DNA of 64,000 nucleotides from Gammaproteobacteria bacterium (GTDB lineage: Bacteria; Pseudomonadota; Gammaproteobacteria; Tethybacterales; Persebacteraceae): positions 1,785,643 to 1,849,642 of the forward strand of contig OZ244916.1 in the NCBI GenBank assembly GCA_965221835.1. Direction: 5' to 3'. Positions within the stretch are counted from its first letter, which is position 1. Each line of letters opens with the position of its first letter. A program made the translations under genes and the position numbers. Below the pieces are notes generated by a model. It was given only the letters and a program-made list of their open reading frames with translations, ran no database searches and was not told where the DNA came from. Positions 1,370 through 49,242 of this stretch are shown in pieces.

Positions 1370-1388
1370 GGAAGTTTGCGCGAAAAAA

Positions 1389-3494: not shown

Positions 3495-3562
3495 CCCCGA
3501 ATTATACGCCGATTTTCGGCGTTCCCCGAATCGTCCATTTTGCGGAAAAATGAATTGAACGG

Positions 3563-11605: not shown

Positions 11606-14600
11606 ATGGAAAAAACGATGAACGACAATTTGCTGCATAAAACTAAAAACGCCCTCGCCGAATGCATTCGTCCCGCCGAAAACTTCGCCGCCGCGGCGGA
11701 AAACTTACTAAACGCACTCGGCTACGAAAGCGACCGCAAACATGTCGGCGGCAATGATTCGGTACGCGATTTCGTTCGCGATTTTCCCGCGCCGCAAGCG
11801 GAAACAAAAACCGAATCGGAATTCGTCCGCGCCGCAAAATCCGCGCGCATCATCTTTCAATATACCGGAGAAGAAATTAGCAAATCGCAAAACATGTTCG
11901 GCGCGACATTTAACGAGGGCGACATTGAAAGTTTTTTGTTTGTCGCCGTAGAGTTAAAATCCGGCGATTATGCGCGCGGCAAATACGCCGAATTCGCGCG
12001 CGAAATCAACAAGCGATTTGGAATGCCGACGGTCGTTTTGTTTCGCACGGCGGACGGCGCAGATAAATTGTCGCTCGCGTTTGTCGGACGGCGCGCACAC
12101 AAAACCGATTCCGCCCGCGATGTTTTGGAAAAAGTTTCGCTGCTGCGCAATATCAATTGCAACAAACCGCACCGCGGACATTTGGATATTCTTTTGCAAC
12201 TGTCTTTGCAAAATCGGCTGGAATGGATGTCGCGCAACAGCAAGGAAAAAAACTTCGCCGGACTTCTCGCCGCATGGCTGGACGAACTCAACACGGACGC
12301 GTTAAATAAACGTTTTTATGGCGAACTGCTTTCGTGGTTTGAACGCGCAAATCAAAAAATCTGTTTTCCGGCGAACTTGCAAAACAAGCGCGAAGATTGG
12401 ACGATTCGCCTGATTACGCGCCTGCTTTTTGTCTGGTTCGTCAAAGAAAAAAATCTTGTCGCCGAAGATTTGTTTTACAAATCGCAAATTTGCCCGCTGT
12501 TAAAAAATGGTGCGAATCCAACCAACGATTCGTACTATCGCGTTGTTTTGCAAAATCTCTTTTTTGCGACTCTCAATACGCCGATAAAAGATCGCAAATT
12601 CAGCGAAGGCGGACGCGATGCGCATCGCGATTTTTCGCGGTGGCGATATGCCGCCGAAATCGCAAACGACAAATGCAAAGAAAAACTAAAACAACTCTTC
12701 GCGCAAACGCCGTTCATCAACGGCGGACTCTTTGATTGTTTGGACGGCTACGACAGCCCGGCGAGTGCGAAAAACGCCGGACGCGAAGGCGGCGAAGAAC
12801 GGACAGATTATTTTTCGGAATCGTATTACAAAGATTCGCGCATAAAAGACAAGTTGTCGGTTCCCGATTCTTTGTTTTTTGCCGAAAACGGATTGCTTTC
12901 TATTTTCCAAAAATATAAATTTACGGTGGAAGAAAATACGCCGATAGAACAAGAAGTGGCGTTGGATCCGGAACTGCTGGGGCGCGTCTTTGAAAACCTT
13001 CTCGCTTTTTACAATCCGGAAACGCGCGAAAATGCGCGCAAACAAACCGGTTCTTTTTATACCCCGCGCGAAGTTGTAGATTATATGACGCGCGAATCGG
13101 TGGCGGAATGTTTGGCGGCGAAAACCGGTGCGGACGGCGATAAAACGCGCGCGCTTTTGGATTATGCTGCACCTGCTGATCATTCGTTTTCGGCGGCGGA
13201 AGTTAAATCTTTAGTACGTGCAATTTCCGAAATTAAAATTTTTGATCCCGCCGCCGGATCGGGGGCGTTTCCGATGGGCGTTTTGCATCTTCTTACGCTC
13301 GCGCTTTCGCGTTTGGATTCGCAAAATGCGGAATGGCACGAACTGCAAAAAAATCGCGCGCAAAAAGATGCGGCGGAAACCTTTCATCGCGCCGACAAAT
13401 CCGAACGCGGCGAACGGCTGGATGAAATTAACGAAGTTTTTTCGCGCTATTCCGATTCCGATTTCGGGCGCAAATTGTTTCTCATACAAAACAGCATTTT
13501 CGGTGCGGACATTCAGCCGGTCGCATGTCAAATTTCCAAACTGCGATTTTTTATTTCGCTGGCGATAGAACAAAAGCGGGATGCGAACGCGGAAAACTTC
13601 GGCATAAAACCGCTGCCGAATTTGGAAACGCGATTCATCGCCGCCGATTCGCTGATTAAAATCGGCGGCAGGGGACAAGGCGCACTAAAATCGGAAGCGG
13701 CGGCGAAGTTGGAACGCGACCTCGCGGCGAATCGCGAACGGCATTTTAATGCGACCGCCCGCAAAACAAAATTGCACTGCAAAAACAAAGATGAAGAATT
13801 GCGCAAAAAACTTGCGGCAGAGTTGAAAAAAACCAGCGGATTTGATAACGAAGACGCCGGACGCATCGCTGTTTGGAATCCGTACGACCAAAACGCCGCC
13901 GCGAAATGGTTTGATGCGGAATATATGTTCGGCGTCGCCGACGGCTTCGACATCGTCATCGGCAATCCGCCGTATGTGCAATTGCAAAGAGACGGCGGAC
14001 GATTGGCAAATTTATACGCGCCGCAAAACTACGAAAGTTTCGCGCGCACGGGCGATTTGTATATGTTGTTTTACGAACGCGGATTGCAACTTTGCGCGTC
14101 CGGCGGCGGGCTGATGTTTATCACTTCCAACAGTTGGTTGCGCGCAAACTATGGCGCAAATTTGCGCGGCGTTCTCGCCCGCCATAATCCGCGTTTGCTG
14201 ATTAATATGGGCGCGAATGTTTTTGAAAATGTATCTGTTAGCGTGAACATTTTGGGCGTTCAAAATGCACCGAACCGTAATGAATTGTTGGCGAATGATT
14301 TTGTTCGCACGGGCGATTTTCCGCCGTCCGAATGGCATTCCATTGCGCCGAAAAATAAAGACGGATGGGCGATTGTATCCGCGTCTGAAAACACTTTGCG
14401 CGCGAAAATTGAACAGGCGGGAACACCAATTAAGAATTGGAATGTTCGCATGTTTTTCGGTATTAAAACCGGTTATGACAAAGCGTTTTTGATTGATGCG
14501 GCGACCAAACACCGTTTGTGCGCGGAAGATCCGGGCAGTGCGGAAATTATCAAACCGACGATTCGCGGGCGGAATATTGGTAGATACTTTTACGAATCTG

Positions 14601-35558: not shown

Positions 35559-36041
35559 ATGAACGACAATGATAAGAAATTACTTGCAAATAAGAAATTG
35601 TTTGATGCAATTAAGAAAGGCAAGGAAATAGCCCGAGACGATACCAAAAACAAATTGGATGAATTGAATAAAGAAATCAAGGATCTGATTACTAAAGAAA
35701 ACGCGAGTCCGAATGCGAAAATGGATGACGGTTGGACGGTTTTGATGGAGGCGGCAAATGTCGGAAATCTCGAAATTGCCCAAACTCTGATAAATGCAGG
35801 GGCGAATCCGAATGCGGCGAAGGGCTATGGCTGGACGGCTTTGATGGAGGCGGCATATTACGGACATATGACAATTGTCTCTCTTCTGCTGGAAAAAGTG
35901 GTAAATCGGAATGCGGCATTAAATGCGAATTGGACTGCTTTGGATGCCGCAAATCTGGCGTGGCAAAATGCGAAAACTCCGGAAGAGGCGAAAAAGTTTC
36001 AGACAATTGTGGATATGTTTCAAGGGAAAAAGACGGGATAA
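35559..36041 (+). CDS. ankyrin-repeat protein (no signal peptide)
   Basis: Repeats GWTVLMEAANVGNLEIAQTLINAGANPNA / GYGWTALMEAAYYGH. AAGGAG RBS. Confidence 0.8.
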   Translation: MNDNDKKLLANKKLFDAIKKGKEIARDDTKNKLDELNKEIKDLITKENASPNAKMDDGWTVLMEAANVGNLEIAQTLINAGANPNAAKGYGWTALMEAAYYGHMTIVSLLLEKVVNRNAALNANWTALDAANLAWQNAKTPEEAKKFQTIVDMFQGKKTG

Positions 36042-36044
36042 CAA

Positions 36045-36078
36045 AACCGGCGGGGATTCAATGTCCCCGCTTTTTTTG
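36045..36078 (+). terminator. rho-independent terminator (family hairpin CCGGCGGGGATTCAATGTCCCCGC + T7)
   Basis: GC stem followed by T-run immediately after the ank stop codon. Confidence 0.7.
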
Positions 36079-36111
36079 TATTTCTTTACAAAACCAAAAG
36101 GAAAAATCATT

Positions 36112-36438
36112 ATGAAAATCAAATCTATTATTTTGCCGCTGTTTGCGGTTTTTGTTTTGGGTGTGTCCGGTTGTGCGGACAAATCTGGACCGAAATTACG
36201 CGAAATTGAACGAGTTTCGGAAATGTCGGACGAGGAAATTGCCGCCGCAAGAGAGGCGTGTCATCTTATTTCCACAACCGATTATAACTGTTCAGAATTG
36301 GTAAATCCGATTCACGGAATGACTCCGGACGAATGGAAAATTCTCACCGAATCTACGAAAGAATGTCGCAAAAATCAGTTGCTGTCATTTCATCATTGTC
36401 TGCGAGGAAAAGGCGTACGGTACGCCGAATATAATTAA
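36112..36438 (+). CDS. small lipoprotein (conserved MKIKSIILPLFAVF signal, lipobox LGVSGC)
   Basis: ATG at 36112 with RBS AAAGGAAAAATCATT-ATG. Cys-rich mature part. Confidence 0.65.
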   Translation: MKIKSIILPLFAVFVLGVSGCADKSGPKLREIERVSEMSDEEIAAAREACHLISTTDYNCSELVNPIHGMTPDEWKILTESTKECRKNQLLSFHHCLRGKGVRYAEYN

Positions 36439-36441
36439 GCC

Positions 36442-37551
36442 ATGTTTGCCCGTTATGTTTGGATAATCGCCCCGCTGTTTGCGGCGGGGTGCGGCGGGAT
36501 TAACATTTTGCCGGAACCGTTTACTCGCGAACGGGTGGACGGAAAAATTCCGGTAAAAGTAGAATTGATTCGCAAACAAGTACGGGCGGAGTTGGACGGC
36601 GTTCCAGAAGGCGAAGCGGAAGTTTTGCGATGGCAGGTGATTGAAAAAGATTATAACAAATGCCGTTTGTCATCCGCCCGTGCAACAAAATCGGAAGCGG
36701 AGGAAGTTTTCGCCGTGTGCATGTCCGAACAAGGATATGTTTATATGTTGCCGATTGACGCCGAACAATTTCATTGGGATATTGCGGAAAAAGAGGAGGG
36801 TATTTACGCAGAGGAAAAACGAGTAGCGGAAGAACGCCGAATTGCCGCTGAAAAAGAACTGGAAAAACTCCGAGTTGCCGCCGAAAAAAAAGCGGAAGAG
36901 GAACGAATCGCTGCCGAAAAGAAAGCGGAAGAGGAACGAATTGCTGCCGCTGTAAAAGCGGAACAGGAGCGTTTAGAAAACAATTTGAGAATTTATGCAA
37001 GAGACAATGAATTGTCGGAAGTGCGGCGTTTACTTTCTTTGGGCGTTAATCCTAATGCGGTGAATGATGGCGGTGTGACGGCTTTGATGGGGGCTGCATA
37101 TAATGGACATGCCGAAATTGCGAAAATGCTGTTATCGGCAGGGGCGAATCCGAATGTGGTAAATAAGGACGGCTTGACGGCTTTGATAGTGGCGGGAAAT
37201 AGCGAACATGCCGAAATTGCGAAAATGCTGTTAGACGGCGGTGCGAATCCGAATGCGGCGATTATTAACGGCTGGACGGCTTTGATTTTGGTAGCAAATA
37301 AGGGACATGCCGAAGTTGCGAAAATTTTATTGTCGGCGAGGGCGAATCCGAATGCGGTTGATAATAAAGGTATGACGGCTTTGATGGTAGCAGCATTGAA
37401 AGGACATGCCGAAATTATAAAGATATTGATAGCGGGCGGAGCGGAAGTTAATCAGCGTACGCCCGAAGGAAGTACAGCTTTGAGTTTGGCAAAATATAGG
37501 GGCTTTTCCGAGATTGAACGCATTTTGCGAGCGGCGGGGGCGAAAGAATAA
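36442..37551 (+). CDS. lipoprotein with coiled-coil (AEEERIAAEKKAEEERIAA) and C-terminal ankyrin repeats, ending ERILRAAGAKE
   Basis: Signal/lipobox LFAAGC. 4-5 ANK repeats (TALMGAAYNGHAEIAKMLLSAGANPN...). Confidence 0.8.
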   Translation: MFARYVWIIAPLFAAGCGGINILPEPFTRERVDGKIPVKVELIRKQVRAELDGVPEGEAEVLRWQVIEKDYNKCRLSSARATKSEAEEVFAVCMSEQGYVYMLPIDAEQFHWDIAEKEEGIYAEEKRVAEERRIAAEKELEKLRVAAEKKAEEERIAAEKKAEEERIAAAVKAEQERLENNLRIYARDNELSEVRRLLSLGVNPNAVNDGGVTALMGAAYNGHAEIAKMLLSAGANPNVVNKDGLTALIVAGNSEHAEIAKMLLDGGANPNAAIINGWTALILVANKGHAEVAKILLSARANPNAVDNKGMTALMVAALKGHAEIIKILIAGGAEVNQRTPEGSTALSLAKYRGFSEIERILRAAGAKE

Positions 37552-37588
37552 CGGCGAGGATTCCATTTCCCCGCCGTTTTTTTTTACA
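37552..37588 (+). terminator. rho-independent terminator (family hairpin)
   Basis: acggcgaggattccatttccccgccg + T9. Confidence 0.7.
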
Positions 37589-37609
37589 AAACTAAAATGA
37601 AAAATCATT

Positions 37610-38101
37610 ATGAAAAATGACATAAATAAACAATTGATTAAAGCGTGTATTGACGACAATTTAGAGGAAGTTAATCGTCTAATTGCGGCTGGTGCGAATC
37701 CGAATGTGGTAAATAAGGACGGCTTGACGGCTTTGATATTGGCGGCATTTTATGGATATACCGAAATTGCGAAAGTGTTGTTAGACGGCGGTGCGAATCC
37801 GAATGCGGCGATTATTAACGGCTGGACGGCTTTGATTTTGGCGGCAAATAAGGGACATGCCGAAATTGCGAAAATTCTGTTGTCGGCGGGGGCGAATCCG
37901 AATGGGACGGGTAATGACAACTTGACGGCTTTAATGCGTGCGACAGTGGAAGGATATGCCGAAATTGTAAAGATATTGATAGCTGGTGGAGCGGAAGTTA
38001 ATCAGCGTACGCACGACGGAGTCACGGCTTTGGATCTTGCGAAACATGGGGGCTTTTCCAAGATTGAACGCATTTTGCGGGCGGCGGGGGCGAAAGAATA
38101 G
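37610..38101 (+). CDS. ankyrin-repeat protein, ends ERILRAAGAKE
   Basis: 4 ANK repeats. A degenerate copy of the MKIKSII start lies upstream as a 7-codon ORF (atgaaaaatcattatgaaaaatga). Confidence 0.8.
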   Translation: MKNDINKQLIKACIDDNLEEVNRLIAAGANPNVVNKDGLTALILAAFYGYTEIAKVLLDGGANPNAAIINGWTALILAANKGHAEIAKILLSAGANPNGTGNDNLTALMRATVEGYAEIVKILIAGGAEVNQRTHDGVTALDLAKHGGFSKIERILRAAGAKE

Positions 38102-38136
38102 CGGCGGGGATTCCGTGTCCTCGCCGGTTTTTTTTG
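38102..38136 (+). terminator. rho-independent terminator (family hairpin)
   Basis: cggcggggattccgtgtcctcgccgg + T8. Confidence 0.75.
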
Positions 38137-38185
38137 CGTTTTTACGAATTCGGCGGGATAGGGTTGTTTTCAACCGAAAGAGGAG

Positions 38186-39265
38186 ATGATGGGCGAAAAG
38201 GACAAACAATTTATTAAAGCAATTATAGAATGCGATTTGAATTTGGTCAAGCAACTGATTGATGAAGGTGCGAATCTGAATGCGGTGGATGAATGGAACC
38301 AGCCGGCTTTGTATAATGTGGTAGTACGACGACTTGACGAATTTACGAAAATTCTGATTGCGGCGGGTGCAAATCCAAATGCGGCGAATAAAGACGGCAT
38401 GACGGCTTTGATGTTGGCGGGACAAGAAGGATATACCGAAGTTGCAAAAATGCTGTTGTCGGCGGGGGCGAATCCGAATGCGGCAAATAAATACGGCATG
38501 ACGGCTTTGATGCTTGTGGCATGGAACGGAAATGCCGAAGTTGCCGAGTTGCTGTTATCGGCGGGGGCGGATGTGAATGCGGTGACTGATAAAAGAGATA
38601 GGGCTTTTAATAAAGGCGATACGGCTTTGATGTTTGCGGCAAGGAAAGGACATGAAGTTGCGAAAATACTGTTGTCGGCGGGGGCGAATCCGAATGCGGC
38701 GAATTATGGCGGCTATACGGCTTTGATGCAGGCGGCATCATACAAAAACACCGAAGTTGTAAAAATGCTAATAGCGGCGGGGGCGGATGTGAATGCGGCG
38801 AAGTATGACGGCACAACGGCTTTGAATGGGGCGGCGAATGACGAAATTAGATGCATGTTGCAGGCGGCGGGAGCGAAATTCCGTGTCCCCGCTGTTTTAG
38901 AAAAACAAAAGAATTCCTTTTCTGTTTTTGATTTTATAATGGATATCACTGTTTTTGATATTATCATCACTATCGTCTTATTTGTTATACTTGTTTTACA
39001 AGGTTCAATCGCTTTAATAGTTTTGTCAATTGCGTTGATCTGCTTTCTTGCATTTGCTTTCGTATTTGGTCATGTTTTTTTTCTCGCCGTGGCTTTTGAT
39101 TTTGGAGTTGTCGGCATAATCGCTTATGTTGCCGCATGGATTTTTATGGCTCCCATAATGATAATTTTAGGAGCTGTCGCAGGGGTTATATCTTTTATAG
39201 GGGTTCTTCTAGGATTTCTACCTTTTTTCGAAAAATGGCGGAACTTTGGCGACAAAAATGCGTAA
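38186..39265 (+). CDS. ankyrin-repeat protein with C-terminal ~4-TM membrane domain
   Basis: 6 ANK repeats, then ...LQAAGAKFRVPAVLEKQ... reads through into a hydrophobic 130-aa tail (IITIVLFVILVLQGSIALIVLSIALICFLAFAFVFGHVFFLAVAF...). Confidence 0.75.
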   Translation: MMGEKDKQFIKAIIECDLNLVKQLIDEGANLNAVDEWNQPALYNVVVRRLDEFTKILIAAGANPNAANKDGMTALMLAGQEGYTEVAKMLLSAGANPNAANKYGMTALMLVAWNGNAEVAELLLSAGADVNAVTDKRDRAFNKGDTALMFAARKGHEVAKILLSAGANPNAANYGGYTALMQAASYKNTEVVKMLIAAGADVNAAKYDGTTALNGAANDEIRCMLQAAGAKFRVPAVLEKQKNSFSVFDFIMDITVFDIIITIVLFVILVLQGSIALIVLSIALICFLAFAFVFGHVFFLAVAFDFGVVGIIAYVAAWIFMAPIMIILGAVAGVISFIGVLLGFLPFFEKWRNFGDKNA

Positions 39266-39430
39266 ATTTTTTTTGATTTTCCGCGTGTTTGCGGCATTTT
39301 GATTATCTACCAAATGATTCCGTATATCTACAAAATGCACACCGAAGGGGATATTTAATGGCATAATTGCGAGGCGGGGAAAAGGATTTTCGCCGCATTT
39401 TTTAATCATTATCAAAAAACAAGGAGAAAA

Positions 39431-39940
39431 ATGATGAAGAGTGATTACAAGAAATTGTCCAAAGCCCTGAAAGATGGAAAAGTGGATGACTTTAAGAATT
39501 TGCTTAAAGAGGGCGCAAATCCGAATGCGCCTGATCACCGGCATGAATCGATTCTGCATTTGGCGGTGCGCAAAGGCAATGCCGAAAATTCCGAAATAAC
39601 CGTTGATTATCTGTTAAACAAAGCGGTTAATAAGGCGAATCCGAATACGGCAACGCCGGACGGATGGACGGCTTTGATGGAAGCGGCGCATGTCGGAAAA
39701 TGCAATGTTGCCAAAATTTTGTTAGAAGCGGGGGCGAATCCAAATGCGGCGAAGGGCTACGGTTGGACGGCTTTAATGTCGGCGGCATTTGAGGGACATG
39801 ACAAAGTTGTAGATATTCTGTTGAAACGGGGGGCGAATCCGAATGCCGCATTAAACGCAGATTGGACGGCTTTGTTTTCCGCATATGAAGCCGGACATTC
39901 CAAAGTCGTCAAAATTTTGGAAAAGAAGGCGAAAAAATAA
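39431..39940 (+). CDS. ankyrin-repeat protein (no signal peptide)
   Basis: GWTALMEAAHVGKCNVAKILLEAGANPNAAKGYGWTALMSAAFEGH. AAGGAG RBS. Confidence 0.8.
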   Translation: MMKSDYKKLSKALKDGKVDDFKNLLKEGANPNAPDHRHESILHLAVRKGNAENSEITVDYLLNKAVNKANPNTATPDGWTALMEAAHVGKCNVAKILLEAGANPNAAKGYGWTALMSAAFEGHDKVVDILLKRGANPNAALNADWTALFSAYEAGHSKVVKILEKKAKK

Positions 39941-39944
39941 CAAA

Positions 39945-39980
39945 AATCGGCGGGGATTCCATGTTCCGCCGTTTTATTTA
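39945..39980 (+). terminator. rho-independent terminator (family hairpin)
   Basis: tcggcggggattccatgttccgccg + T-rich. Confidence 0.65.
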
Positions 39981-40003
39981 CAAAACCGAAAGGAAAAATT
40001 ATT

Positions 40004-41008
40004 ATGAAAATCAAATCTATTATTTTGCCGCTGTTTGCGGTTTTTGCGTTGATAGTTTCGCCGTCTGCTTTTACCGATGAAGGCGATGAAGTCCATCAAG
40101 GGCTTTTTGCCAATCCGTTGACGCACGCCTCTGTGCACGGCAATTTGGCGGAAGTTAAGCGGTTGCTTGCGGCGGATGCAAATCCGAATGAGGCGAATGA
40201 TTACGGTACTACGGCTTTAATGTGGGCGACAAGCAAAGGACATGCCGAAGTTGCCGAGTTGCTATTGTCGGCAGGGGCTAATCCGAATGCGGCGAATATT
40301 TACGGCTTTACGGCTTTGCATGATGCAAAATGGGGACATGCCGAAGTTGTCGAGGTTTTGTTGGCGGCGGGGGCGAATCCGAATGCGGAGAATAATGTCG
40401 GCGAGACGGCTTTGATAGTTGTTGTAAGAGAAGGATATACCGAAATGGTAAAAATGATGTTGGCGGCGGGGGCGAATCCGAATGCGGCAACTAATAACGG
40501 CAGGACGGCTTTGATGGGGGCGGCATGGAAAGGACATGCTGAAATTGCCGAGATGTTATTATCGGCAGGGGCGAATCCGAATGCGGCAACTAATAACGGC
40601 AGGACGGCTTTGATGGGGGCGGCAAGGAACGGACATGCCGAAGTTGCGAAAATGCTGTTGTCGGCGGGGGTAGATGTTAATGCGGCGATTGATGAAGGTA
40701 CAACGGCTTTGATGCTGACTGCATGGAAAGGACATGCTGAAATTGCCGAGATGTTATTATCGGCAGGGGCGAATCCGAAGGTGACGGATAAATCGGGCAA
40801 AACGGCTTTGATGTGGGCGGTAAGAAGAGGAAATGCCGAAGTTACCGAGATATTGTTGGAAGAGGATACGTATTTGTATGCAACAGATAAGGAAGGCAAA
40901 AACGTTTTGGATTATGCAAACGAAGAATGGTCGGAAGCGAAAACGCAAGAAGAAGCATTGGAGTATAAGCGGATTGTAGAAATGTTGCGGGCGGCGGGGG
41001 CGAAATAA
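40004..41008 (+). CDS. secreted ankyrin-repeat protein (signal peptide MKIKSIILPLFAVFALIVSPSAF), ends MLRAAGAK
   Basis: 8 ANK repeats including two near-identical units (NNGRTALMGAAWKGHAEIAEMLLSAGANPNAAT x2). Confidence 0.8.
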   Translation: MKIKSIILPLFAVFALIVSPSAFTDEGDEVHQGLFANPLTHASVHGNLAEVKRLLAADANPNEANDYGTTALMWATSKGHAEVAELLLSAGANPNAANIYGFTALHDAKWGHAEVVEVLLAAGANPNAENNVGETALIVVVREGYTEMVKMMLAAGANPNAATNNGRTALMGAAWKGHAEIAEMLLSAGANPNAATNNGRTALMGAARNGHAEVAKMLLSAGVDVNAAIDEGTTALMLTAWKGHAEIAEMLLSAGANPKVTDKSGKTALMWAVRRGNAEVTEILLEEDTYLYATDKEGKNVLDYANEEWSEAKTQEEALEYKRIVEMLRAAGAK

Positions 41009-41012
41009 CAAA

Positions 41013-41048
41013 AACCGGCGGGGATTTCGTGTCTCCGCCGTTTTTTTA
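41013..41048 (+). terminator. rho-independent terminator (family hairpin)
   Basis: ccggcggggatttcgtgtctccgccg + T7. Confidence 0.75.
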
Positions 41049-41067
41049 ATAATCAAAAAGGATAACA

Positions 41068-41289
41068 ATGAATAAAATTCTGAAATTCATCCTTTCGCCG
41101 GTTATTATTCCGACTGCTTTTGCGAAATCGGCGAAAAACAGCAAGGTGATGCGGGTGTTGCTATATCTATACTTGCTTGTTTTCGTTTTGACTACTCCGT
41201 ATGCATGGCTTTTCGGGCTTATTCCATTATTTATTCATTTGTTATTCTTTCTGCATAAAGTAATGATGAAGGTCATTAACGAAGAATGA
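41068..41289 (+). CDS. small hydrophobic membrane protein (73 aa, 2 TM)
   Basis: ORF followed by a family terminator hairpin at 41293-41327. Confidence 0.45.
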   Translation: MNKILKFILSPVIIPTAFAKSAKNSKVMRVLLYLYLLVFVLTTPYAWLFGLIPLFIHLLFFLHKVMMKVINEE

Positions 41290-41292
41290 CAA

Positions 41293-41327
41293 AACCGGCG
41301 GGGATTTCGAATCCTCGCCGTTTTTTA
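41293..41327 (+). terminator. rho-independent terminator (family hairpin)
   Basis: ccggcggggatttcgaatcctcgccg + T6. Confidence 0.7.
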
Positions 41328-41350
41328 CAAAACCAAAAGGAAAAATCATT

Positions 41351-41416
41351 ATGAAAATCAAATCTATTATTTTGTCGCTGTTTGCCGCCGTGTTTGCGGC
41401 GGGGTGTGGGCGGTGA
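41351..41416 (+). pseudogene. frameshifted lipoprotein signal-peptide segment (MKIKSIILSLFAAVFAAGCGR-stop) upstream of, and out of frame with, the next ankyrin gene
   Basis: Conserved family start plus lipobox AAGC terminates after 21 codons. The ANK ORF continues in another frame from 41404/41416. Confidence 0.55.
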
Positions 41417-42597
41417 TGGCGTCTTTTGTAGGTAAAATTTTACATTCTATGGTGGGGAATGGATTAACACCATTCGCTCAACTAATGCTTTGGCTGGGTA
41501 CGAATCCGAATGCGGCAGTGGATGACGGATTTACGGCTTTGATGTCGGCGGCATTTGACGGAAATGCCAAAATTGCCAAGTTGCTGTTGACAGCAGGGGC
41601 GAATCCGAATGCGGTGACTAATGACGGCAGGACGGCTTTAATGGCGGCGGCAATCAAAGGACATGCCGAAGTTGCGAAAGTGTTGTTAGACGGCAAGGCG
41701 AATCAGAATGCGGCGGCTAATAAAAGCGTGACGGCTTTGATGGTGGCGGCAGGGGAAGGACATACCGAGGTTGCGAAAGTGTTGTTAGACGGCGGGGCGA
41801 ATCTGAATGCAGCGAATGATGACGGCTATACGGCTTTGATGTTGGCGGCAGTGGAAGGACATGCCGAAGTTGCGAAAGTTCTGATTGCGGCGGGGGCGAA
41901 TCCGAATGCGGCGAATGATAGTGGCAATACGGCTTTGCATTTGGTGGCAGTTAAAGGGCATGCTGAAGTTGCGAAAATACTGTTAGCGGCGGGGGCGAAT
42001 CCGAATGCGGCGAGAGATGGCGGCTGGACGGCTTTAATGTTTGCGGCAATTGACGGACATGCCGAAGTTGCGAAAGTATTGTTAGACGGCGGGGCAAATC
42101 CGAATGCGGCGGGTAATAACGGCGAAACAGCTTTGGGAGGGGCGGCAAAAATAGGACATGCCGAAGTTGCTAAAATTCTATTATCGGCGGGGGCGAATCC
42201 GAATGCAGTGGACAACGACAGCTGGACGGCTTTGAGGTGGGCAGCATATAAGGGACATACCGAAGTTGCGAAAATTCTGTTATCGGCGAGGGCGAATCCG
42301 AATGCGGCGAATGATTACGGCGATACGGCTTTGATACTTGCATCAATATCAGGACATTCCGAAGTTGCGAAAATTCTGATTGCGGCGAAGGCGAATCCGA
42401 ATGCGACGGATAATAACGGCAGGACGGCTTTGATTCAGGCAGTAGATAAAGGACATGCCGAAATTGTAAAGATATTGATAGCGAGTGGAGCGGAAGTTAA
42501 TCAGCGTACGTCCAAAGAATTCACAGCTTTGGGTATAGCGAAAGCACTCGGCTTTTCCAAGATTGAACGCATTTTGCGGGCGGCGGGGGCGAAGTAG
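41416..42597 (+). CDS. ankyrin-repeat protein (11 repeats), ends ERILRAAGAK; signal peptide disrupted by frameshift
   Basis: ORF track start 41404 is GTG. First ATG is 41416. Repeats TALMxAAxxGHAEVAKVLLDGGANPNAA throughout. Confidence 0.75.
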   Translation: MASFVGKILHSMVGNGLTPFAQLMLWLGTNPNAAVDDGFTALMSAAFDGNAKIAKLLLTAGANPNAVTNDGRTALMAAAIKGHAEVAKVLLDGKANQNAAANKSVTALMVAAGEGHTEVAKVLLDGGANLNAANDDGYTALMLAAVEGHAEVAKVLIAAGANPNAANDSGNTALHLVAVKGHAEVAKILLAAGANPNAARDGGWTALMFAAIDGHAEVAKVLLDGGANPNAAGNNGETALGGAAKIGHAEVAKILLSAGANPNAVDNDSWTALRWAAYKGHTEVAKILLSARANPNAANDYGDTALILASISGHSEVAKILIAAKANPNATDNNGRTALIQAVDKGHAEIVKILIASGAEVNQRTSKEFTALGIAKALGFSKIERILRAAGAK

Positions 42598-42680
42598 CAT
42601 AATCTAACTTTGGCGGCGGTCGCTTTGTTTCATCGGCGGGCGATTGCTTTTTATTCATTCTATCCGAAAGGAGAATTACG

Positions 42681-43364
42681 ATGAACGAAAACGACACAAA
42701 TTTATTTAATGCGATTAAACTCAACAAAGATCCGGAAGAGGTCAAGCGTCTGATTAAGGCGGGGGCGAATCCGAATGCCGTGGATGATGACGAATTGACG
42801 GCTTTGATGTGGGTGGCGTGGGGCGGAGGAGGCAAAGAAGAGAAAGTAAGATTGCCCGACAATACTCGGAATTGCGTAGGGCGTATCGGTTGGACTATTT
42901 TGCCCGCAGATCCCAGAAAAGAAGATGCCGAAATAGCCGAAGTATTGTTATCGGAGAAAGCGGAGCCCAATGCGGCAAGAAGTGATGGCATCACAGCATT
43001 GATGATGGCAGCGTATAACGGACATGCCGAAGTTGTCAAGATGTTGTTGTCGGCGGGGGCGAATGTGGATGCGGCGAATGATGACGGCGTGACGGCTTTG
43101 ATGGCGGCGGCACAAGAAGGGTATACCGAAGTTGTCAAAATTTTGATTGCGGCGGGTGCAAATCTAAATGCGGCGGATAAAGACGGCTGGACGACTTTGA
43201 TGTTTGCGGCACAAAAAGGGCATACCGAAGTTGCTGAAATTCTGTTGTCGGTGGAGGCGAATCCGAATACGGAAAATAAATACGGCAGGACGGCTTTGGA
43301 TATTGCGGAAGAAGAGGGGCATGACGAATTCATCCGCATTTTGGAAGAGGCGGGGGCGGAATAA
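42681..43364 (+). CDS. ankyrin-repeat protein (no signal peptide)
   Basis: GITALMMAAYNGHAEVVKMLLSAGANVDAANDDGVTALMAAAQEGYTEVVKILIAAGANLNA. AAGGAG RBS. Confidence 0.8.
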   Translation: MNENDTNLFNAIKLNKDPEEVKRLIKAGANPNAVDDDELTALMWVAWGGGGKEEKVRLPDNTRNCVGRIGWTILPADPRKEDAEIAEVLLSEKAEPNAARSDGITALMMAAYNGHAEVVKMLLSAGANVDAANDDGVTALMAAAQEGYTEVVKILIAAGANLNAADKDGWTTLMFAAQKGHTEVAEILLSVEANPNTENKYGRTALDIAEEEGHDEFIRILEEAGAE

Positions 43365-43368
43365 CAAA

Positions 43369-43404
43369 AACCGGCGGGGATTTCGTGTCCTCGCCGGTTT
43401 TTTG
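43369..43404 (+). terminator. rho-independent terminator (family hairpin)
   Basis: ccggcggggatttcgtgtcctcgccgg + T6. Confidence 0.75.
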
Positions 43405-43709
43405 CGGGGATTTGGGGGTTTTGTTCTGAATTCGCAATTTGCTCTTGATATTTGTCGGGCGGGGCGGTTGGGGATTTGGGGGGATTTTCGCGTTCGCGAG
43501 AATGGAATTGGGGTTGCCGAAAAATGTTTATGCGTTGCGGGCGTTTTTGCGTCCGAATTGGCGGATTTTTCGCGCAAATAAAGCGTTTTTTTCCGATTCC
43601 GGCGGGGCAAATCGTGCGGGCGGCGATTATCCGGCGGCGGCATTTTTCTTAAAACGGAGTCGGCGGACGGACGGGCGTGCATTAAACAGGCGATTCGTAT
43701 TAAAATTGA

Positions 43710-43766
43710 AAAATGACAATGCTAAATAACATTCTTTCCATTTTGATTTGGTTTCCGATTGCGGGC
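43710..43766. repeat. 57-bp direct repeat: duplicated 5' end of nuoM (second copy 46076-46132 is the real gene start)
   Basis: aaaaatgacaatgctaaataacattctttccattttgatttggtttccgattgcggg is identical at both positions. Brackets the RM1 insertion. Confidence 0.85.
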
Positions 43767-43807
43767 GTCCGAAACGGCGGGGGCGTTAAATCAGTTGCGG
43801 GGACGAG

Positions 43808-45187
43808 ATGAAAATTGACATTGAAAAATTGAAACGCGAGTTGTATGAAATGGATGCCTTGCGCAAAAAAGATGATGTGCAGTGCGACACGGCGGGGCGT
43901 ATTGAGCCGCAATATTTTGACGGCGATTTGTCGGAGTTGGGATTGTCGCCGAAAGTCGCCGAGGCGATGCGCAAAGAGTTGGGCGACAAAAAATTGTATC
44001 AACATCAGGCGGATGCGATTCGGGCATCAATGCGGGGCGACAATGTCGTTTTGGAATCCCCGACCGCAAGCGGCAAAACGCTATCATTCACCGCCCCGAT
44101 GCTGGAAAGCGTTTGCGGCGGCGGCGGCTGGCGAATTATTTGCGGCGAATGTATTTCCGTCTTAAAACAATTGCCGGACAAATCCGCCAATTTAATTTTC
44201 GCCGACCCGCCGTACAATTTGCAATTAAAAAACGAGTTATACCGCCCGAACATGACTCGCGTGGACGGCGTTTCCGATTCGTGGGACAAGTTTGCATCTT
44301 TTGCGGAATATGATATTTTTTGCGATTCGTGGTTGCGCGAATGTCGCCGCGTTTTGGCGGATGACGGCGCGATTTGGGTAATCGGTACTTATCACAACAT
44401 CGGGCGTTTGTCGCGTCTTATGCAGGATTTGGGTTTTTGGATGCAAAACGATGTGATTTGGCACAAGACGAATCCGATGCCGAATTTTCGCGGCGTGCGG
44501 TTTACGAATGCAACTGAAACTTTATTGTGGGCGAAAAAATCGGAAAAATCACGCGCGGTTTTCAATCACAAAAAAATGAAAGCGGAAAACGGCGGCAAAC
44601 AAATGACGAATGTTTGGCGTTTTCCGATTTGCGGCGGGGCGGAGCGTTTGCGCGATGCGGCGGGAAAGAAATTGCATTCAACACAAAAACCGGAATCGCT
44701 TTTGCGGCGAATCATTCTCGCAACAAGCCGCCCGGGCGATGTCGTATTGGATCCTTTTTCCGGCAGCGGCACGACGGTCGCGGTCGCGCGTTCTTTGCAA
44801 AGAATCGGAATCGGCATAGAACGCGAAAAAAAATATATCACAATTTCGGCAAAACGAATCGCCGCAATTGTACCGGAGGAAATTCCCGCCGAAGATTCCG
44901 CCCCCGCCCCTCGCCGCGTACCGTTTTCGGAATTGATTGCGCGCGGATTAATTAAACCCGGCGAAACTTTGTATTCAAGCAACGGCAAATCACGCGCGCA
45001 AGTTTTGCAAAACGGCGACATTAAAATTAATGGCGCGATTAACGCCGAAGGTTCCATCCACAAAATCGGCGCGAAAGCCGCGGGGACTCCGTCTTGCAAC
45101 GGCTGGAATTTTTGGTACGCGAAAACTGACGGCGGCAAAGTGTTGCTGAACGATTTGCGCGAACGGGCGCGAAAAACGGAGGCGTAA
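43808..45187 (+). CDS. beta-class DNA methyltransferase (DPPY...FSGSGTT order) carrying an in-frame N-terminal ~98-aa fragment of a DEAD/DEAH-box helicase; probable MTase start at ATG 44101
   Basis: Residues 60-98 LYQHQADAIRASMRGDNVVLESPTASGKTLSF = helicase Q-motif plus Walker A. From MLESV onward it is a typical ~360-aa MTase: IICGECISVLKQLP, LIFADPPYNL, LDPFSGSGTT. Confidence 0.8.
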   Translation: MKIDIEKLKRELYEMDALRKKDDVQCDTAGRIEPQYFDGDLSELGLSPKVAEAMRKELGDKKLYQHQADAIRASMRGDNVVLESPTASGKTLSFTAPMLESVCGGGGWRIICGECISVLKQLPDKSANLIFADPPYNLQLKNELYRPNMTRVDGVSDSWDKFASFAEYDIFCDSWLRECRRVLADDGAIWVIGTYHNIGRLSRLMQDLGFWMQNDVIWHKTNPMPNFRGVRFTNATETLLWAKKSEKSRAVFNHKKMKAENGGKQMTNVWRFPICGGAERLRDAAGKKLHSTQKPESLLRRIILATSRPGDVVLDPFSGSGTTVAVARSLQRIGIGIEREKKYITISAKRIAAIVPEEIPAEDSAPAPRRVPFSELIARGLIKPGETLYSSNGKSRAQVLQNGDIKINGAINAEGSIHKIGAKAAGTPSCNGWNFWYAKTDGGKVLLNDLRERARKTEA

Positions 45188-45190
45188 TTT

Positions 45191-46084
45191 ATGAATTATG
45201 ATCAATTTTCCCGCCTTATTAACCGTACTGTTTTCTCCGATTCCAAGGTGAAACTGTTGCGGAGCATCGCTCGTCAACCGGAGAATTTTGTCGGACTTTT
45301 CCGACCGACGACGCCGGAGGTGAAAATTGCCCAAAATTTATCTCAATCTCATGAGATTAAGTTCGGCTACGCATTTGAGGAATTGGTGCGCCTGTATCTC
45401 AAAGAAAACGGATGTCAAATATTTGATTCTTCTATTGTCATTGATGGCAAAAGAAAAGATTTGGATATTTATTTTCGCAAGGATGGTAAGGATTATCTCG
45501 TGGAGCAAAAGACGCGGGATAACCACGACTCCACGAAAAAGCTCGGGCAAGCCGATGACTTTGAGAAAAAATTGGTAGCGGTGTCCGATGGCGGAAAAAA
45601 AGCGGTGTGCGGCGTTCTATTCTTTTTAGACCCCGGTATGTCCAAAAACAAAATATTCTATGAAGAGCGTCTGCCCGAGATTACACAGCGACACGGACTC
45701 GAGACGCGCCTCGTATATGGCGGGGAATTTTTTAATATGTTGTCGTTGGATGTTTGGGATGAGATTGAAAAGTATCTCATTCGGTGGCGCGCGGAATTGC
45801 CGGGATTCCCGGAATTTAACTATGACCGAAATCCGGAGGAAAGTTTTAACGAAATCAAAGACATGAGTCCCGCTGATTTTTGTAAAATTTTCACGCACGA
45901 AGAAATAGGCAAACACATTCTGCCGATTCTCTTTCCGGAGCAAAAAACGCTTAAAATGTTGGTTGACTATTGGGCGTGCAAACCCGAAGGCGTTCGGGCG
46001 CGCAAATCTGACGGCGTTCGCATTTCCCGGTTAATAAATGAACGAATTTCGGAGATGTTGCGGGCGGCGGGGACGAAAAAATGA
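45191..46084 (+). CDS. putative type II restriction endonuclease (PD-(D/E)xK)
   Basis: D-x13-EQK pattern (KDLDIYFRKDGKDYLVEQKTRD). Position immediately 3' of the MTase. C-terminal codons share ttgcgggcggcgggg-cgaaa with the ank gene 3' ends. Stop overlaps nuoM ATG (ATGA). Confidence 0.55.
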   Translation: MNYDQFSRLINRTVFSDSKVKLLRSIARQPENFVGLFRPTTPEVKIAQNLSQSHEIKFGYAFEELVRLYLKENGCQIFDSSIVIDGKRKDLDIYFRKDGKDYLVEQKTRDNHDSTKKLGQADDFEKKLVAVSDGGKKAVCGVLFFLDPGMSKNKIFYEERLPEITQRHGLETRLVYGGEFFNMLSLDVWDEIEKYLIRWRAELPGFPEFNYDRNPEESFNEIKDMSPADFCKIFTHEEIGKHILPILFPEQKTLKMLVDYWACKPEGVRARKSDGVRISRLINERISEMLRAAGTKK

Positions 46085-47565
46085 CAATGCTAAATAACAT
46101 TCTTTCCATTTTGATTTGGTTTCCGATTGCGGGGGGGGTGGTGGTGTTGGTTTGCGGGGCGGCGGGGGTTTGTCCGTACCGAATTAAGGCGGGCGGGATT
46201 GCGGTATCGGGTGCGGCGTTTTTGATTTCGTTGCCGCTGTTTTTTATGTTTGATAGCGGCACGGCGGCGATGCAATTTGTTGAAGATGCTGCGTGGATAG
46301 ACCGGTTTAATATCCGCTACGGGTTGGGCGTGGACGGCTTTTCAATGCTGATGATTTTGCTGAATACTTTTACGACCGTGCTTGTTTTGGCGGCGTGCTG
46401 GCAATCGGTGCAGACGCGGGTTGCAGGTTATGTGGCGGCATTTTTGATGATGTCGGGGCTGACAAACGGCGTTTTTGCGGCGACCGATGCGGCGTTGTTT
46501 TATGTTTTTTGGGAGGCGACTCTCATTCCGCTGTTTATTGTCATCGGCGTTTGGGGCGGCGAACGGCGCGTTTATGCGGCGATTAAATTCTTTTTGTATA
46601 CGCTTGTCGGTTCGTTGCTGATGCTGATTGCGCTTTTGTATTTATACAACGAAACCGGCGATTTTTCTATCGCATCTTTTCACGATGTGCCGATTTCCAT
46701 GACTGCACAAACATTTTTATTTTTCGCATTTTTGGCGGCGTTTGCGGTAAAAGTGCCGATGACGCCTGTGCATACTTGGTTGCCGGATGCGCATGTGGAG
46801 GCGCCGACAGGCGGTTCTATTGTGCTGGCGGCGGTGATGTTAAAACTCGGCGCGTACGGATTTTTGCGTTTTTCGTTGCCGGTCGCCCCCGATGCGAGTG
46901 TGGAATTCGCGTGGCTGATTATCGCGTTGTCTTTGGCGGCGATTGTTTATATCGGCTTGGTTGCGCTGGTGCAAGATGATATGAAAAAACTCATCGCCTA
47001 TTCGTCGGTTGCGCACATGGGATTTGTAACGCTTGGATTTTTTCTGTTTGACGAACTCGGAATGAAAGGCGGAATCGCGCAAATGGTGTCGCACGGTTTT
47101 GTATCGGGCGCGATGTTTTTCGGCGTGGGCGTGGTATATGACCGGATGCATACGCGCAAAATTGCGGACTACGGCGGCATTGCAAACACGATGCCGAAAT
47201 ATGCGGCGTTTATGATGTTGTTTGCGATGGCGAATGCGGGATTGCCCGGCACGAGCGGATTTGTCGGCGAGTTTATGGTGATTTTGGCGGCGGTGCGCAC
47301 CGATTTATGGATAGGATTGTTGTGCGCAACGACTTTAATTACCGGCGCGGCGTATACTTTGTGGATGTACAAACGCGTCTTTTTCGGCGAAATCGCAAAC
47401 GATGCGGTGCGCGAAATGCGCGATGCAACACCGCGCGAAATATTAATAATGTCGCTTTTCGCCGCGCTGATAATGCTGATGGGATTGTGGCCGTTTCCAT
47501 TTCTGGAAACGCTGGACGCAACAACCGCGAATCTACTCGCCCATGTGCGGGAGGGGAAGTTGTGA
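46081..47565 (+). CDS. nuoM: NADH-quinone oxidoreductase subunit M
   Basis: 14-TM antiporter-like subunit. MTMLNNILSILIWFPIAGG..., WLPDAHVEAPTGGS. Confidence 0.92.
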   Translation: MTMLNNILSILIWFPIAGGVVVLVCGAAGVCPYRIKAGGIAVSGAAFLISLPLFFMFDSGTAAMQFVEDAAWIDRFNIRYGLGVDGFSMLMILLNTFTTVLVLAACWQSVQTRVAGYVAAFLMMSGLTNGVFAATDAALFYVFWEATLIPLFIVIGVWGGERRVYAAIKFFLYTLVGSLLMLIALLYLYNETGDFSIASFHDVPISMTAQTFLFFAFLAAFAVKVPMTPVHTWLPDAHVEAPTGGSIVLAAVMLKLGAYGFLRFSLPVAPDASVEFAWLIIALSLAAIVYIGLVALVQDDMKKLIAYSSVAHMGFVTLGFFLFDELGMKGGIAQMVSHGFVSGAMFFGVGVVYDRMHTRKIADYGGIANTMPKYAAFMMLFAMANAGLPGTSGFVGEFMVILAAVRTDLWIGLLCATTLITGAAYTLWMYKRVFFGEIANDAVREMRDATPREILIMSLFAALIMLMGLWPFPFLETLDATTANLLAHVREGKL

Positions 47566-48551
47566 ACAACGCGACCGCCGTTTCCTTTTTTAATGATTCG
47601 CGGAATGCGGCGGCGTTCGCGCCGTCCGACAACAAGCGGGCGGACGGGCGATATTACACGCGCGGCGATCCGTTTTCGCATGCGGCGTTTTGCGAATGGG
47701 CGCGCGTTGCCGGACTGCCGCAAGCGAAAGTTTTGGAACCGTTTGCCGGCGCGAACAATTTAATTAAGACGTTGCGCGCTGCCGGTTTGTGCGAAACATT
47801 CGCGGCGTTTGATATTTTGCCCGGCGACAAATCTGTCAAACGGCGCGATACGCTGGCGGATTTTCCGCGCGGCTTTAATGTCTGCATTACAAATCCGCCG
47901 TGGCTGGCGCGCAACTCTGCGACCCGCCGCGGATTGCCGTATCCGCAAACTCGCTACGACGATTTGTACAAACATTGTCTCGCCGAGTGTCTCGCGCATT
48001 GCGGTTATGTTGCCGCGTTGGTGCCGGAATCGTTTATTCGCGGCGGTTTGTTTACGCCGCGCCTTTCGGCGTTTGTTTCGCTGAACAACGGCATGTTCGC
48101 CGATACCGAACATCCGGTCGGACTCGCGCTTTTTGTCCCGCGCGCGCTCAATACTATTTTATATTGCGGCGCGACAAAAATCGGCGAGTTGCGGCGGTTG
48201 CGCGAATATTGCCCGCCCGCATCCCGCGATGGCGGCGGCGTTTCGTTCAATTCGCCGGACGGCAATTTGGGATTGATTGCGTTGGATAATAATTTTTGCG
48301 CGAGCATTCGTTTTTGCGAAGCGGCGGAGTTGGACGGTTACGAAGTGCGACAAAGTTGCCGCGCGATTACCAAAATTCGCGTTCCCGGACGCCCGCAAAT
48401 CGGCGCGTATAATCGTTTTATCAATTCCTTTCGCAAAAACACGATGGATGTTTTTTTAACGGCATATCGCGGTTTGCGCAAAGACGGATTTTACCGCCGC
48501 CGTTTGGATTACGCGCTAGCGCGGGATATTATTTCTTATGTCGGATTCTAA
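47562..48551 (+). CDS. gamma-class N6-adenine DNA methyltransferase (FxGxG then NPPW)
   Basis: Motif I VLEPFAGANN, motif IV VCITNPPWLA. GTG start overlapping the nuoM stop (GTGA). ORF track start 47307 overlaps nuoM and is rejected. Confidence 0.75.
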   Translation: MNNATAVSFFNDSRNAAAFAPSDNKRADGRYYTRGDPFSHAAFCEWARVAGLPQAKVLEPFAGANNLIKTLRAAGLCETFAAFDILPGDKSVKRRDTLADFPRGFNVCITNPPWLARNSATRRGLPYPQTRYDDLYKHCLAECLAHCGYVAALVPESFIRGGLFTPRLSAFVSLNNGMFADTEHPVGLALFVPRALNTILYCGATKIGELRRLREYCPPASRDGGGVSFNSPDGNLGLIALDNNFCASIRFCEAAELDGYEVRQSCRAITKIRVPGRPQIGAYNRFINSFRKNTMDVFLTAYRGLRKDGFYRRRLDYALARDIISYVGF

Positions 48552-49242
48552 AATGCCGCCGCCGGATTGGGAGGGAGAAGCGATGCGCAAAATGTGGCGC
48601 AAAAACGCCGCTGCTGTGCCGTCCGAAGTTGAGACAGGCGACAGCGGGATGATGAAAAAAATCGCGACTTATTGCGATAACTTCGGTTATGCTGCGCGGG
48701 AAGTTATTGCCAAAATTTCCGGCGATAAAATGTTTGCCGCGCACTTTGCCAAAAATCCTGGTACTCAAGGAATTCACGAACAAATCGCTGCCGATTATTT
48801 ACAAAAAATTTCCCTGGTCGGAAATTTTGAGATTTTGCCGAGAAGCGGAAAGGATGCGCTGTTTATCAATGCGCGAGGCGAATTGTTAAAGCGCAAAGAC
48901 AAATCGCAAACGAGTGCGCAAGATTCTAAATCGCTGGATTTTTGTTGGAAAACCGGCGGATTTGTCTGCTACGCGAGTCACAAGTATACGAAAGAATCGG
49001 GCGGGGCGCAAGACCATCAATTTCGCGATCAAAAACGGTTTCTGGAAAATTTTCGCGAACATAATAATCCGCGGGCGGCGTGTTTTGCGATTTGCGATGG
49101 CGCATTTTACACCGAAGAAAAAATGCAGGAGTTGGAAAGTGTGACGCGCAAAAAACCGCCGATAAGTTTCGCCGTACATATTGAAGATGTCGCCGAAAAT
49201 TTGCAAAAACTTGCGGCATTAAAGGATAATTCGCTACAATGA
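48538..49242 (+). CDS. hypothetical protein, candidate restriction endonuclease partner of the preceding MTase
   Basis: Overlaps MTase 3' end by 14 nt. No clear catalytic motif (possible D-x12-SHK). Assignment by context only. Confidence 0.4.
   Translation: MSDSKMPPPDWEGEAMRKMWRKNAAAVPSEVETGDSGMMKKIATYCDNFGYAAREVIAKISGDKMFAAHFAKNPGTQGIHEQIAADYLQKISLVGNFEILPRSGKDALFINARGELLKRKDKSQTSAQDSKSLDFCWKTGGFVCYASHKYTKESGGAQDHQFRDQKRFLENFREHNNPRAACFAICDGAFYTEEKMQELESVTRKKPPISFAVHIEDVAENLQKLAALKDNSLQ

Follow-up and report, generated by a model that had tools for sequence, protein, structure and literature searches.

Structure of the chimeric gene

The DNA analysed here is a stretch of 64,000 nucleotides (nt) from a member of the Gammaproteobacteria (order Tethybacterales; contig OZ244916.1, positions 1,785,643 to 1,849,642), referred to below as the window. 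At positions 43808–45187 on the + strand it carries an open reading frame (ORF) of 459 amino acids (aa), open throughout, in which the start of a helicase gene runs in frame into the body of a DNA methyltransferase gene. It was demonstrated that this ORF is chimeric, that the junction between its parts can be located in the DNA, that the same fusion recurs in several assemblies and that a sister strain holds an intact helicase allele.

The first 103 codons, here termed hel' (43808–44116, +), were assigned to a MrfA/YprA-family helicase from the Pfam DEAD match and the match to the protein P0177. The remainder, here 'M (44117–45187, +), is a CcrM/M.HinfI-like beta-class N6-adenine DNA methyltransferase with a RAMA domain, assigned from Pfam, NCBIfam and PDB matches. 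The Pfam domains on the ORF were DEAD (PF00270) at residues 65–102 (28.5 bits, E 1.5e-6, for a gathering score of 26), N6_N4_Mtase (PF01555) at residues 128–348 (211.8 bits, profile positions 2–220 of 221) and RAMA (PF18755) at residues 362–457 (60.3 bits). An earlier note on this DNA had proposed a helicase N-terminus ending at 44100 and fused in frame to a complete beta-class methyltransferase. The in-frame fusion was confirmed by Pfam and by the identity to P0177, and the fragment is real; its helicase-derived part reaches further, to approximately 44116–44125 (codons 103–106). The methyltransferase is of the beta class as stated, and is 5'-truncated by 17 codons rather than complete.

From its first residue, the stump (residues 1–103) aligns with helicase-family N-termini, with 20 invariant columns that include HQ..A and ESPTASGKT. 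The stump holds an N-terminal extension, the Q motif (LYQHQ) and motif I or Walker A (PTASGKT, within ESPTASGKT). A homology search with the fragment alone, which the earlier note had named as a check, returned helicase homologues, with 12 matches at 41–53 % identity and P0177 at 98 %. Motifs Ia–VI, including the DEAH box and RecA2, are missing, and the ORF turns to methyltransferase at codon ~104–106. The breakpoint was located by alignment with MrfA inside RecA1, between motif I and motif Ia, the latter (VYPMKA..DQ) starting just beyond it. The rest of the helicase, including the MZB domain, was absent from the window, since tblastn with full-length helicases matched 43811–44107 only; approximately 14 % of the helicase gene is retained. 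Without the DEAH box, motifs Ia–VI, RecA2 and the Zn-binding MZB domain, the stump can therefore have no helicase activity. We regard it as a tolerated N-terminal tag of the enzyme, giving at most a ribosome-binding site, a start codon and the tag itself.

The native helicase leader of 42 nt (43766–43807, +), with a Shine–Dalgarno-like GGGGACGAG right before the ATG, is retained upstream of the fusion. It is identical in three other contigs, L085, L086 and L090, and in L090 it stands before an intact helicase gene. The sole other in-frame start is a weak ATG at 44099 (codon 98), which has no recognisable Shine–Dalgarno sequence. The helicase leader, its GGGGACGAG and the ATG with 105 codons would now furnish the translation start of the methyltransferase, with translation predicted to begin at 43808.

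An intact allele in a sister strain

An exhaustive HMMER search with the 103-aa fragment covered 1.84 billion representatives. The best match was P0177, a protein of 762 aa with 98 % identity to the stump over residues 1–103 (E 3e-57), a match that chance could not produce; the runner-up had 54 %. P0177 is encoded by an uninterrupted ORF with DEAD, Helicase_C and MZB (DUF1998) domains, which bears out the proposal in the earlier note that the fragment came from a YprA/MrfA-like, DUF1998-bearing helicase. It lies on L090, a contig from the same metagenome as L085. No genome in a GTDB scan had the fragment at more than 60 % identity, and a representative of the source species is therefore absent from GTDB or is without the gene.

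The gene order on L090 was mfd, LysE, ankyrin genes, spacer, 57-nt repeat, 42-nt leader, helicase, nuoM, Mrr, nuoN and NUDIX. This matches the synteny of the window, and the intact helicase occupies the exact place of the fusion and the restriction gene that follows it (hel'::'M-R). Window positions 43363–44125 were 98.0 % identical to L090 positions 9558–10318, and nuoM was 97.8 % identical. The search for an intact helicase gene at this locus in relatives was thus successful (762 aa, between the same spacer and nuoM), and the reading of the fragment as the scar of an earlier helicase gene was upheld. Since L090 holds the intact helicase at the same place, the restriction–modification (RM) pair is taken to have replaced helicase codons ~107–762.

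DNA homology to native methyltransferase genes (loci L001 and L005) begins at 44117, which corresponds to codon 18 of the native 370-aa enzyme, and DNA homology to the L090 helicase stops at 44125. The helicase and methyltransferase alignments overlap in the 9-nt GGCGGCGGC, a GGC tract that marks the recombination junction (44117–44125, +). The native helicase reads ...APMLESVCGGGTALMVYPMKA... here, the window ...APMLESVCGGGGWRIICGEC and the native methyltransferase ...RIRKGGDGWRIICGEC. At the junction in L085, the helicase-type TGCGGGGGCG is retained and is followed by the methyltransferase-type A(T)GGCTGG, a sequence that would imply GGCG microhomology.

It is very probable that the ~105 N-terminal codons represent what is left of a resident MrfA/YprA-family helicase gene, the remainder of which was replaced by an RM pair. 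The start state would have been a 762-aa helicase gene directly upstream of nuoM, between direct repeats of the nuoM start. One recombination event would then have swapped helicase codons ~107–762 for a 5'-truncated methyltransferase gene (from codon 18) together with a restriction gene. The left join would have been illegitimate, at the GGC/GGCG microhomology, and in frame by chance, and the right join homologous, at or in nuoM. The donor may have been a relative with the ancestral order nuoL-M-R-nuoM (M and R being the methyltransferase and restriction genes), with homology-facilitated illegitimate recombination as the most economical route. It is this direction and this mechanism of replacement that we infer. 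The ORF would then have arisen in a gene replacement of an ordinary, RM-linked kind that left a chimeric frame behind, and is not a new enzyme architecture.

The parent helicase family and the question of a defence system

The parent family consists of genes of ~755 aa with DEAD, Helicase_C and MZB domains. The GTDB scan gave 75 loci with a median ORF length of 760 aa, and MZB was present in P0177 and at loci L011, L014 and L047. Nearly all of the 75 loci were from metagenome-assembled genomes, spread over many phyla and with several sponge-associated names (Dehalococcoidia, Poribacteria, Latescibacterota, Poriferihabitaceae and Spongiisociaceae). This suggests that the family has spread horizontally within such communities. 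Members of the family (L009–L083) were also found in Chloroflexota, Binatia, Acidobacteriota and Gammaproteobacteria, with N-terminal ~100 residues that are 39–60 % identical and with the gene frameshifted in several assemblies. Short matches (98–181 aa) from a word-indexed search with a 104-aa fragment were considered as a mini-protein family and rejected, their context showing them to be frameshifted pieces of ~750-aa genes. A linkage of the helicase family to M or R was likewise rejected, since at a few of the 75 loci tblastn matched N6_N4 methyltransferases that are unrelated, and R was found at none.

YprA-family helicases form the core of the DISARM, Dpd, Druantia and ARMADA systems (bioRxiv 10.1101/2025.09.15.676423), and the earlier note had suggested that a DISARM/Druantia/YprA-like defence system was overwritten here. 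A scar of such a multi-gene helicase-based system (DISARM, Druantia, Dpd or ARMADA-like), with an RM cassette in its place, would fit the locus, a hot spot of RM and Mrr genes, and PADLOC gave partial matches to the SngC, DruE, BrxH, DrmA and DpdF models. However, these matches covered the generic helicase core only, and the best full-length matches were to NCBIfam TIGR03817 (whole-length match of 370 bits, under the cutoff of 874) and to the repair helicase YprA/MrfA of Bacillus subtilis (6ZNP; E 1e-65 for P0177 residues 49–714). The helicase on L090 is flanked solely by the spacer and nuoM, with no DISARM, Druantia, Dpd or ARMADA partner genes (DrmB/C/D/M, DruH etc., Dpd genes, BrxHII-like plus PglX-like), and no conserved partner gene was found among 73 GTDB loci, where no neighbour family occurred in more than 5–7. 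The same preprint sets a repair or 'YprA only' branch without conserved context apart from the defence branch, and it is the repair branch that the parent family seems to resemble. The loss of a whole defence system at this locus is therefore improbable, and the stump is more readily read as that of a single MrfA/YprA-family gene.

The methyltransferase and restriction genes

The catalytic motifs of 'M stand in beta order, with ADPPYNL at residues ~132–138 ahead of DPFSGSGTT at ~315–323. Alignment with CcrM (PDB 6PBD) gave E 7e-119 over query residues 109–455 and extended to chain residue 362 of 366. The NCBIfam CcrM model NF050803 scored 481.4 bits, below its equivalog cutoff of 830, so that the enzyme is a homologue and not a CcrM equivalog. 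The closest native enzymes were P0013 (96 % identical, 370 aa) and P0014 (83 %). Native relatives (370–390 aa) have their own N-terminus, with the start MTDIFAAADGLPARIRKGGDGW; 'M is without its own first 17 codons and start codon and has 105 helicase codons instead. CcrM aligns from query residue 109 only, and the loss of 17 native codons therefore probably spares the conserved core.

The restriction gene R (45191–46084, +) encodes a type II restriction endonuclease of the HpyAIV/HinfI family, 297 aa in length, assigned from NCBIfam, PADLOC and its homologues. NCBIfam NF045832 scored 201.9 bits (cutoff 160), with residues 1–256 on profile positions 1–268 of 269; the PADLOC REase_II model scored 237 bits, and Pfam PF09520 (HinfI) matched the L085 orthologue. 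R is collinear with homologues of 285–297 aa. It starts 3 nt past the M stop, with GGAGG upstream, and ends in an ATGA overlap with the start of nuoM. At its 3' end R has a tail (46055–46078, +) that comes from the tail of an ankyrin gene, with 23 of 24 nt identical to the ankyrin gene 3' end at 40982–41005 and further matches at 38075–38095 and 42574–42593. The last ~8 codons of R are correspondingly foreign, reading LRAAGTKK after (EM) (46055–46084), where homologues end in ...EMENNAE or similar. The end of R is thus a second in-frame chimera, and the common GAGATG suggests another microhomology junction. A C-terminal extension of ~40 aa, which had been considered because the profile ends at residue 256, was rejected, since the homologue alignment leaves only the last ~8 residues foreign.

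M and R thus form a HinfI/HpyAIV-type RM pair. Both point to GANTC as the expected target, R by passing the HpyAIV cutoff and M by its close homology to CcrM. GANTC was not depleted in the window, with 334 sites observed and 316 expected. Short palindromes were extremely depleted over the 64,000 nt (observed/Markov expected: GGCC 5/362, TCGA 27/297, ACGT 23/140, GATC 74/266, AGNCT 0/37, CCAGG 4/24). The pattern suggests that this genome has long been exposed to many other RM systems.

Recurrence, divergence and a second methyltransferase copy

The fusion was found in at least three further contigs. P0140, present in NCBI and ENA on a 1.98-Mb contig, was identical to the window ORF; looking up the exact fusion and R proteins in a contig index gave no match. 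L085 (a 1.68-Mb contig at 464x) and L086 (from a different sample) carried the fusion at 98.3 % identity over 43363–47569, with all 459 codons open. The hel' DNA of L085 was identical to the 5' end of the intact L090 helicase gene, a sign that the event was recent. Between the window and L085, divergence was 0.65 % in hel', 0.2 % in R, 1.4 % in nuoM and 3.8 % in M, with a pN/pS of 0.13 for M; the two changes in hel' were both nonsynonymous.

A native methyltransferase gene of 370 aa, M1, was found after nuoJKL, ~49 kb from the fusion, inverted and on the same 1.68-Mb contig (L087 6001–7113, L085 10001–11338). The fused M and native M1 have ~1 kb in common at 94–96 % identity, and the two copies could mediate inversion of the segment between them. 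At mosaic sites in M, the fused copy of L085 matched the native M1 of its own genome (L087) and the window copy matched M1 of L001, which is consistent with gene conversion between paralogues. A simple staggered inversion, with the helicase remainder lying beside M1 after nuoL, was rejected, as tblastn of full-length helicases against L001, L084 and L087 was empty.

Alternative origins of the fusion

The helicase-like N-terminus could instead have been selected as a methyltransferase domain with a regulatory or DNA/ATP-binding role, in a genuine functional fusion. The intact P-loop and Q motif, and a frame that stays open in at least three assemblies (window/P0140, L085 and L086), would be in keeping with this. 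The wider methyltransferase family is not: the best 120 of 8000 scored homologues were 283–413 aa long, covered ~77 % of the query and were all without DEAD and without the extension, contrary to the case that the earlier note had set as its own refutation, in which related methyltransferases all share this N-terminus. The fragment also ends in RecA1 after motif I, at no domain boundary, and matches, at 98 % identity or exactly, the 5' end of a helicase gene that is intact at this locus in the sister strain; strains differ in the fragment at just two sites, both of which change the protein, and the genome holds a native M copy as well. The 'genuine but odd fusion' that the earlier note had offered as its alternative is rejected on the homologues and the breakpoint, and a selected fusion domain is considered very improbable.

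A reverse order of events, with the fusion as the ancestral state and a complete helicase regained through recombination in the sister strain, has nothing direct in its favour beyond the fact that the relative order of the two states is itself deduced. It would need a donor with a complete helicase inside the same 42-nt leader and nuoM repeats, and the derived features (the methyltransferase minus 17 codons and the foreign tail of R) sit in the fusion; the chance of this order is slight. An assembly or sequencing artefact (a chimeric contig or a frameshift) might be suspected from the metagenome-assembled source and the many frameshifted fragments among database helicase homologues, but two samples, assembled independently, gave the same junction with distinguishing single-nucleotide polymorphisms (SNPs), one assembly having 464x coverage, and the junction shows clean microhomology between partners that are otherwise collinear with native genes, leaving such an error with a negligible probability.

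Several points weigh against replacement of a resident helicase gene by the RM pair. The ankyrin-derived tail of R and the elevated divergence of M (3.8 % relative to 0.2–1.4 % in its flanks) show that the cassette took shape in more than one event. No donor of the 'M-R segment was found, and a promoter scan gave no sigma-70-like promoter upstream on the + strand. Activity of the fused methyltransferase is presumed, and with a native M1 in the genome the integrity of R is no proof of it. The intact allele comes from one assembly of low coverage, L090 being a 16.9-kb contig at 3x; this doubt is countered by the SNP pattern of its own that L090 shows and by its unbroken helicase ORF.

The surrounding locus

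Upstream of the cassette, a non-coding spacer (43365–43708, +) extends from the last ankyrin-repeat gene and is ~98 % conserved in L085, L086 and L090. It opens with an element of ~39 nt that is found after every ankyrin gene stop and matches 38102–38133, 41009–41047 and 41291–41326. The spacer is followed by the left copy of a 57-nt perfect direct repeat (43709–43765, +), a copy of the nuoM start made up of 4 nt upstream and the first 53 nt. It is 100 % identical to the right copy (46077–46133, +), which is the start of the functional nuoM. On L090, the left repeat (9902–9958) is 100 % identical and lies upstream of the intact helicase, and the right repeat (12264–12325) is 92 % identical and supplies the last helicase codons. 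In the window the left copy includes a nuoM' remnant mini-ORF of 32 codons (43713–43811, +; MTMLNNILSILIWFPIAG...), recognised from its sequence, the TGA of which overlaps the ATG of the fusion (ATGA). This overlap would allow translational coupling of the two frames.

Downstream, nuoM (46081–47565, +) encodes chain M of NADH:quinone oxidoreductase (Pfam Proton_antipo_M, 273 bits). Its DNA is 82.5 % identical to nuoM of L005 from 46086 onwards, with the ATG at 46087 as its probable native start; the first ~200 nt of the gene are identical among strains. The gene order was nuoL-M-R-nuoM-Mrr-nuoN-NUDIX with 4-nt stop/start overlaps in L088 and nuoL-M-nuoM-Mrr-nuoN in L005, which identifies the M-R pair as an older resident of the nuoL/nuoM junction in the wider clade. 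In the light of these two loci, the picture in the earlier note of an RM cassette laid over a helicase gene holds in that an RM pair replaced it, and is to be modified in that this was a swap at a hot spot rather than a simple foreign arrival. The nuo operon is split in the species of the window, and window positions 1–3908 are 99 % identical to the region beside the nuoL-M1 locus (L001).

Between nuoM and nuoN, the window holds a second RM-like pair (47570–49242), with a weak Eco57I-type methyltransferase match for the ORF ending at 48551 and a weak Tsp45I-type endonuclease match for the ORF at 48538–49242. In other strains and species that share these flanks, the slot is occupied by a Mrr_cat gene (L090, L005 and L088) or by an ORF of 176 aa (L085). 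The nuoM-nuoN slot is thus a second exchange hot spot in the operon.

Two other variable regions were observed. The ankyrin-repeat gene array at 35559–43364, whose genes have the conserved tail ...LRAAGAK*, was wholly different among the window, L085 and L090, the flanks being 98 % identical. Between lpxK and the CN-hydrolase gene, L001 14315–16286 carries an extra BsaWI-type restriction gene with a methyltransferase; L087, otherwise collinear with L001, is without this pair, which is accordingly another strain-variable RM insertion.

A more far-reaching proposal, which we consider doubtful, is that the nuoM 5' end, together with the nuoM/nuoN gap, is a dedicated integrase-free cassette-exchange site whose genes owe their expression to translational coupling with the complex I operon, with the helicase stump exapted as an obligatory translation-initiation module of the methyltransferase. 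Under this proposal, the YprA-like helicase, the HinfI-type RM pair, Mrr, the second RM pair and the ankyrin genes may be swapped by long-target-duplication or by anchor-plus-microhomology recombination.

Significance and comparison with known systems

Replacement of the helicase gene by the RM pair provides a clean natural case of RM systems moving and remodelling genomes, with the before (L090) and after (window) states available and the junction placed within 9 nt. For annotation, it serves as a warning: the DEAD match on the methyltransferase here marks the stump of a pseudogene and is no sign of a new defence architecture. Less ordinary than the fusion is its setting. Overlaps between stop and start codons tie a GANTC-type RM pair into the complex I operon in related lineages, each end of a split operon has a copy of the methyltransferase, and the nuoM-adjacent slot varies among strains that are 98 % identical elsewhere. 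The locus is therefore a useful natural system for the study of integrase-free gene exchange in uncultured bacteria.

For the helicase, the nearest known system is MrfA/YprA (6ZNP/6ZNQ/6ZNS; PMC7797055). P0177 is of similar length (762 versus 751 aa) with the same domain order of DEAD, Helicase_C and MZB/DUF1998, and the stump keeps the equivalent N-terminal region with the Q motif and motif I. It differs in that no MrfB-like exonuclease partner was present in L090 or at 73 other loci. For the methyltransferase, the likeness is to CcrM of Caulobacter (6PBD), M.HinfI and M.HpyAIV, with which it has in common DPPY before FxGxG, a C-terminal RAMA domain and, as its partner, an endonuclease of the HpyAIV/HinfI family. 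Unlike these, the window enzyme carries 105 helicase codons in place of the native first 17 and falls below the CcrM equivalog cutoff.

The junction resembles products of homology-facilitated illegitimate recombination (PMC3240628), with one end in microhomology of 4–9 nt (the GGC tract) and the other in a long nuoM anchor; it differs in that we infer the mechanism in the window from the product alone.

RM-linked rearrangements have been described as allelic substitution and as insertion with long target duplication (Furuta et al. 2010, PMC2853133). The window shows several features of the latter, namely R and M together, an insert of 2.3 kb (<20 kb) and perfect repeats of 57 bp (>30 bp), but the analysis yielded no empty-site genome, and in L090 the helicase is already flanked by these repeats. 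The RM event itself was therefore a substitution; in the terms of Furuta et al., the helicase lay in a 'long target duplication' and the RM pair arrived by substitution. The likeness to their cases lies in an integrase-free RM unit of 2.3 kb between 57-bp target repeats, with a different gene there in a sister strain and with alternative RM or Mrr genes in adjacent slots. The window is set apart from them by repeats that are older than the RM pair, by in-frame chimeras at both ends of the unit (hel'::M and R::ankyrin tail) and by the position of the unit within the complex I operon.

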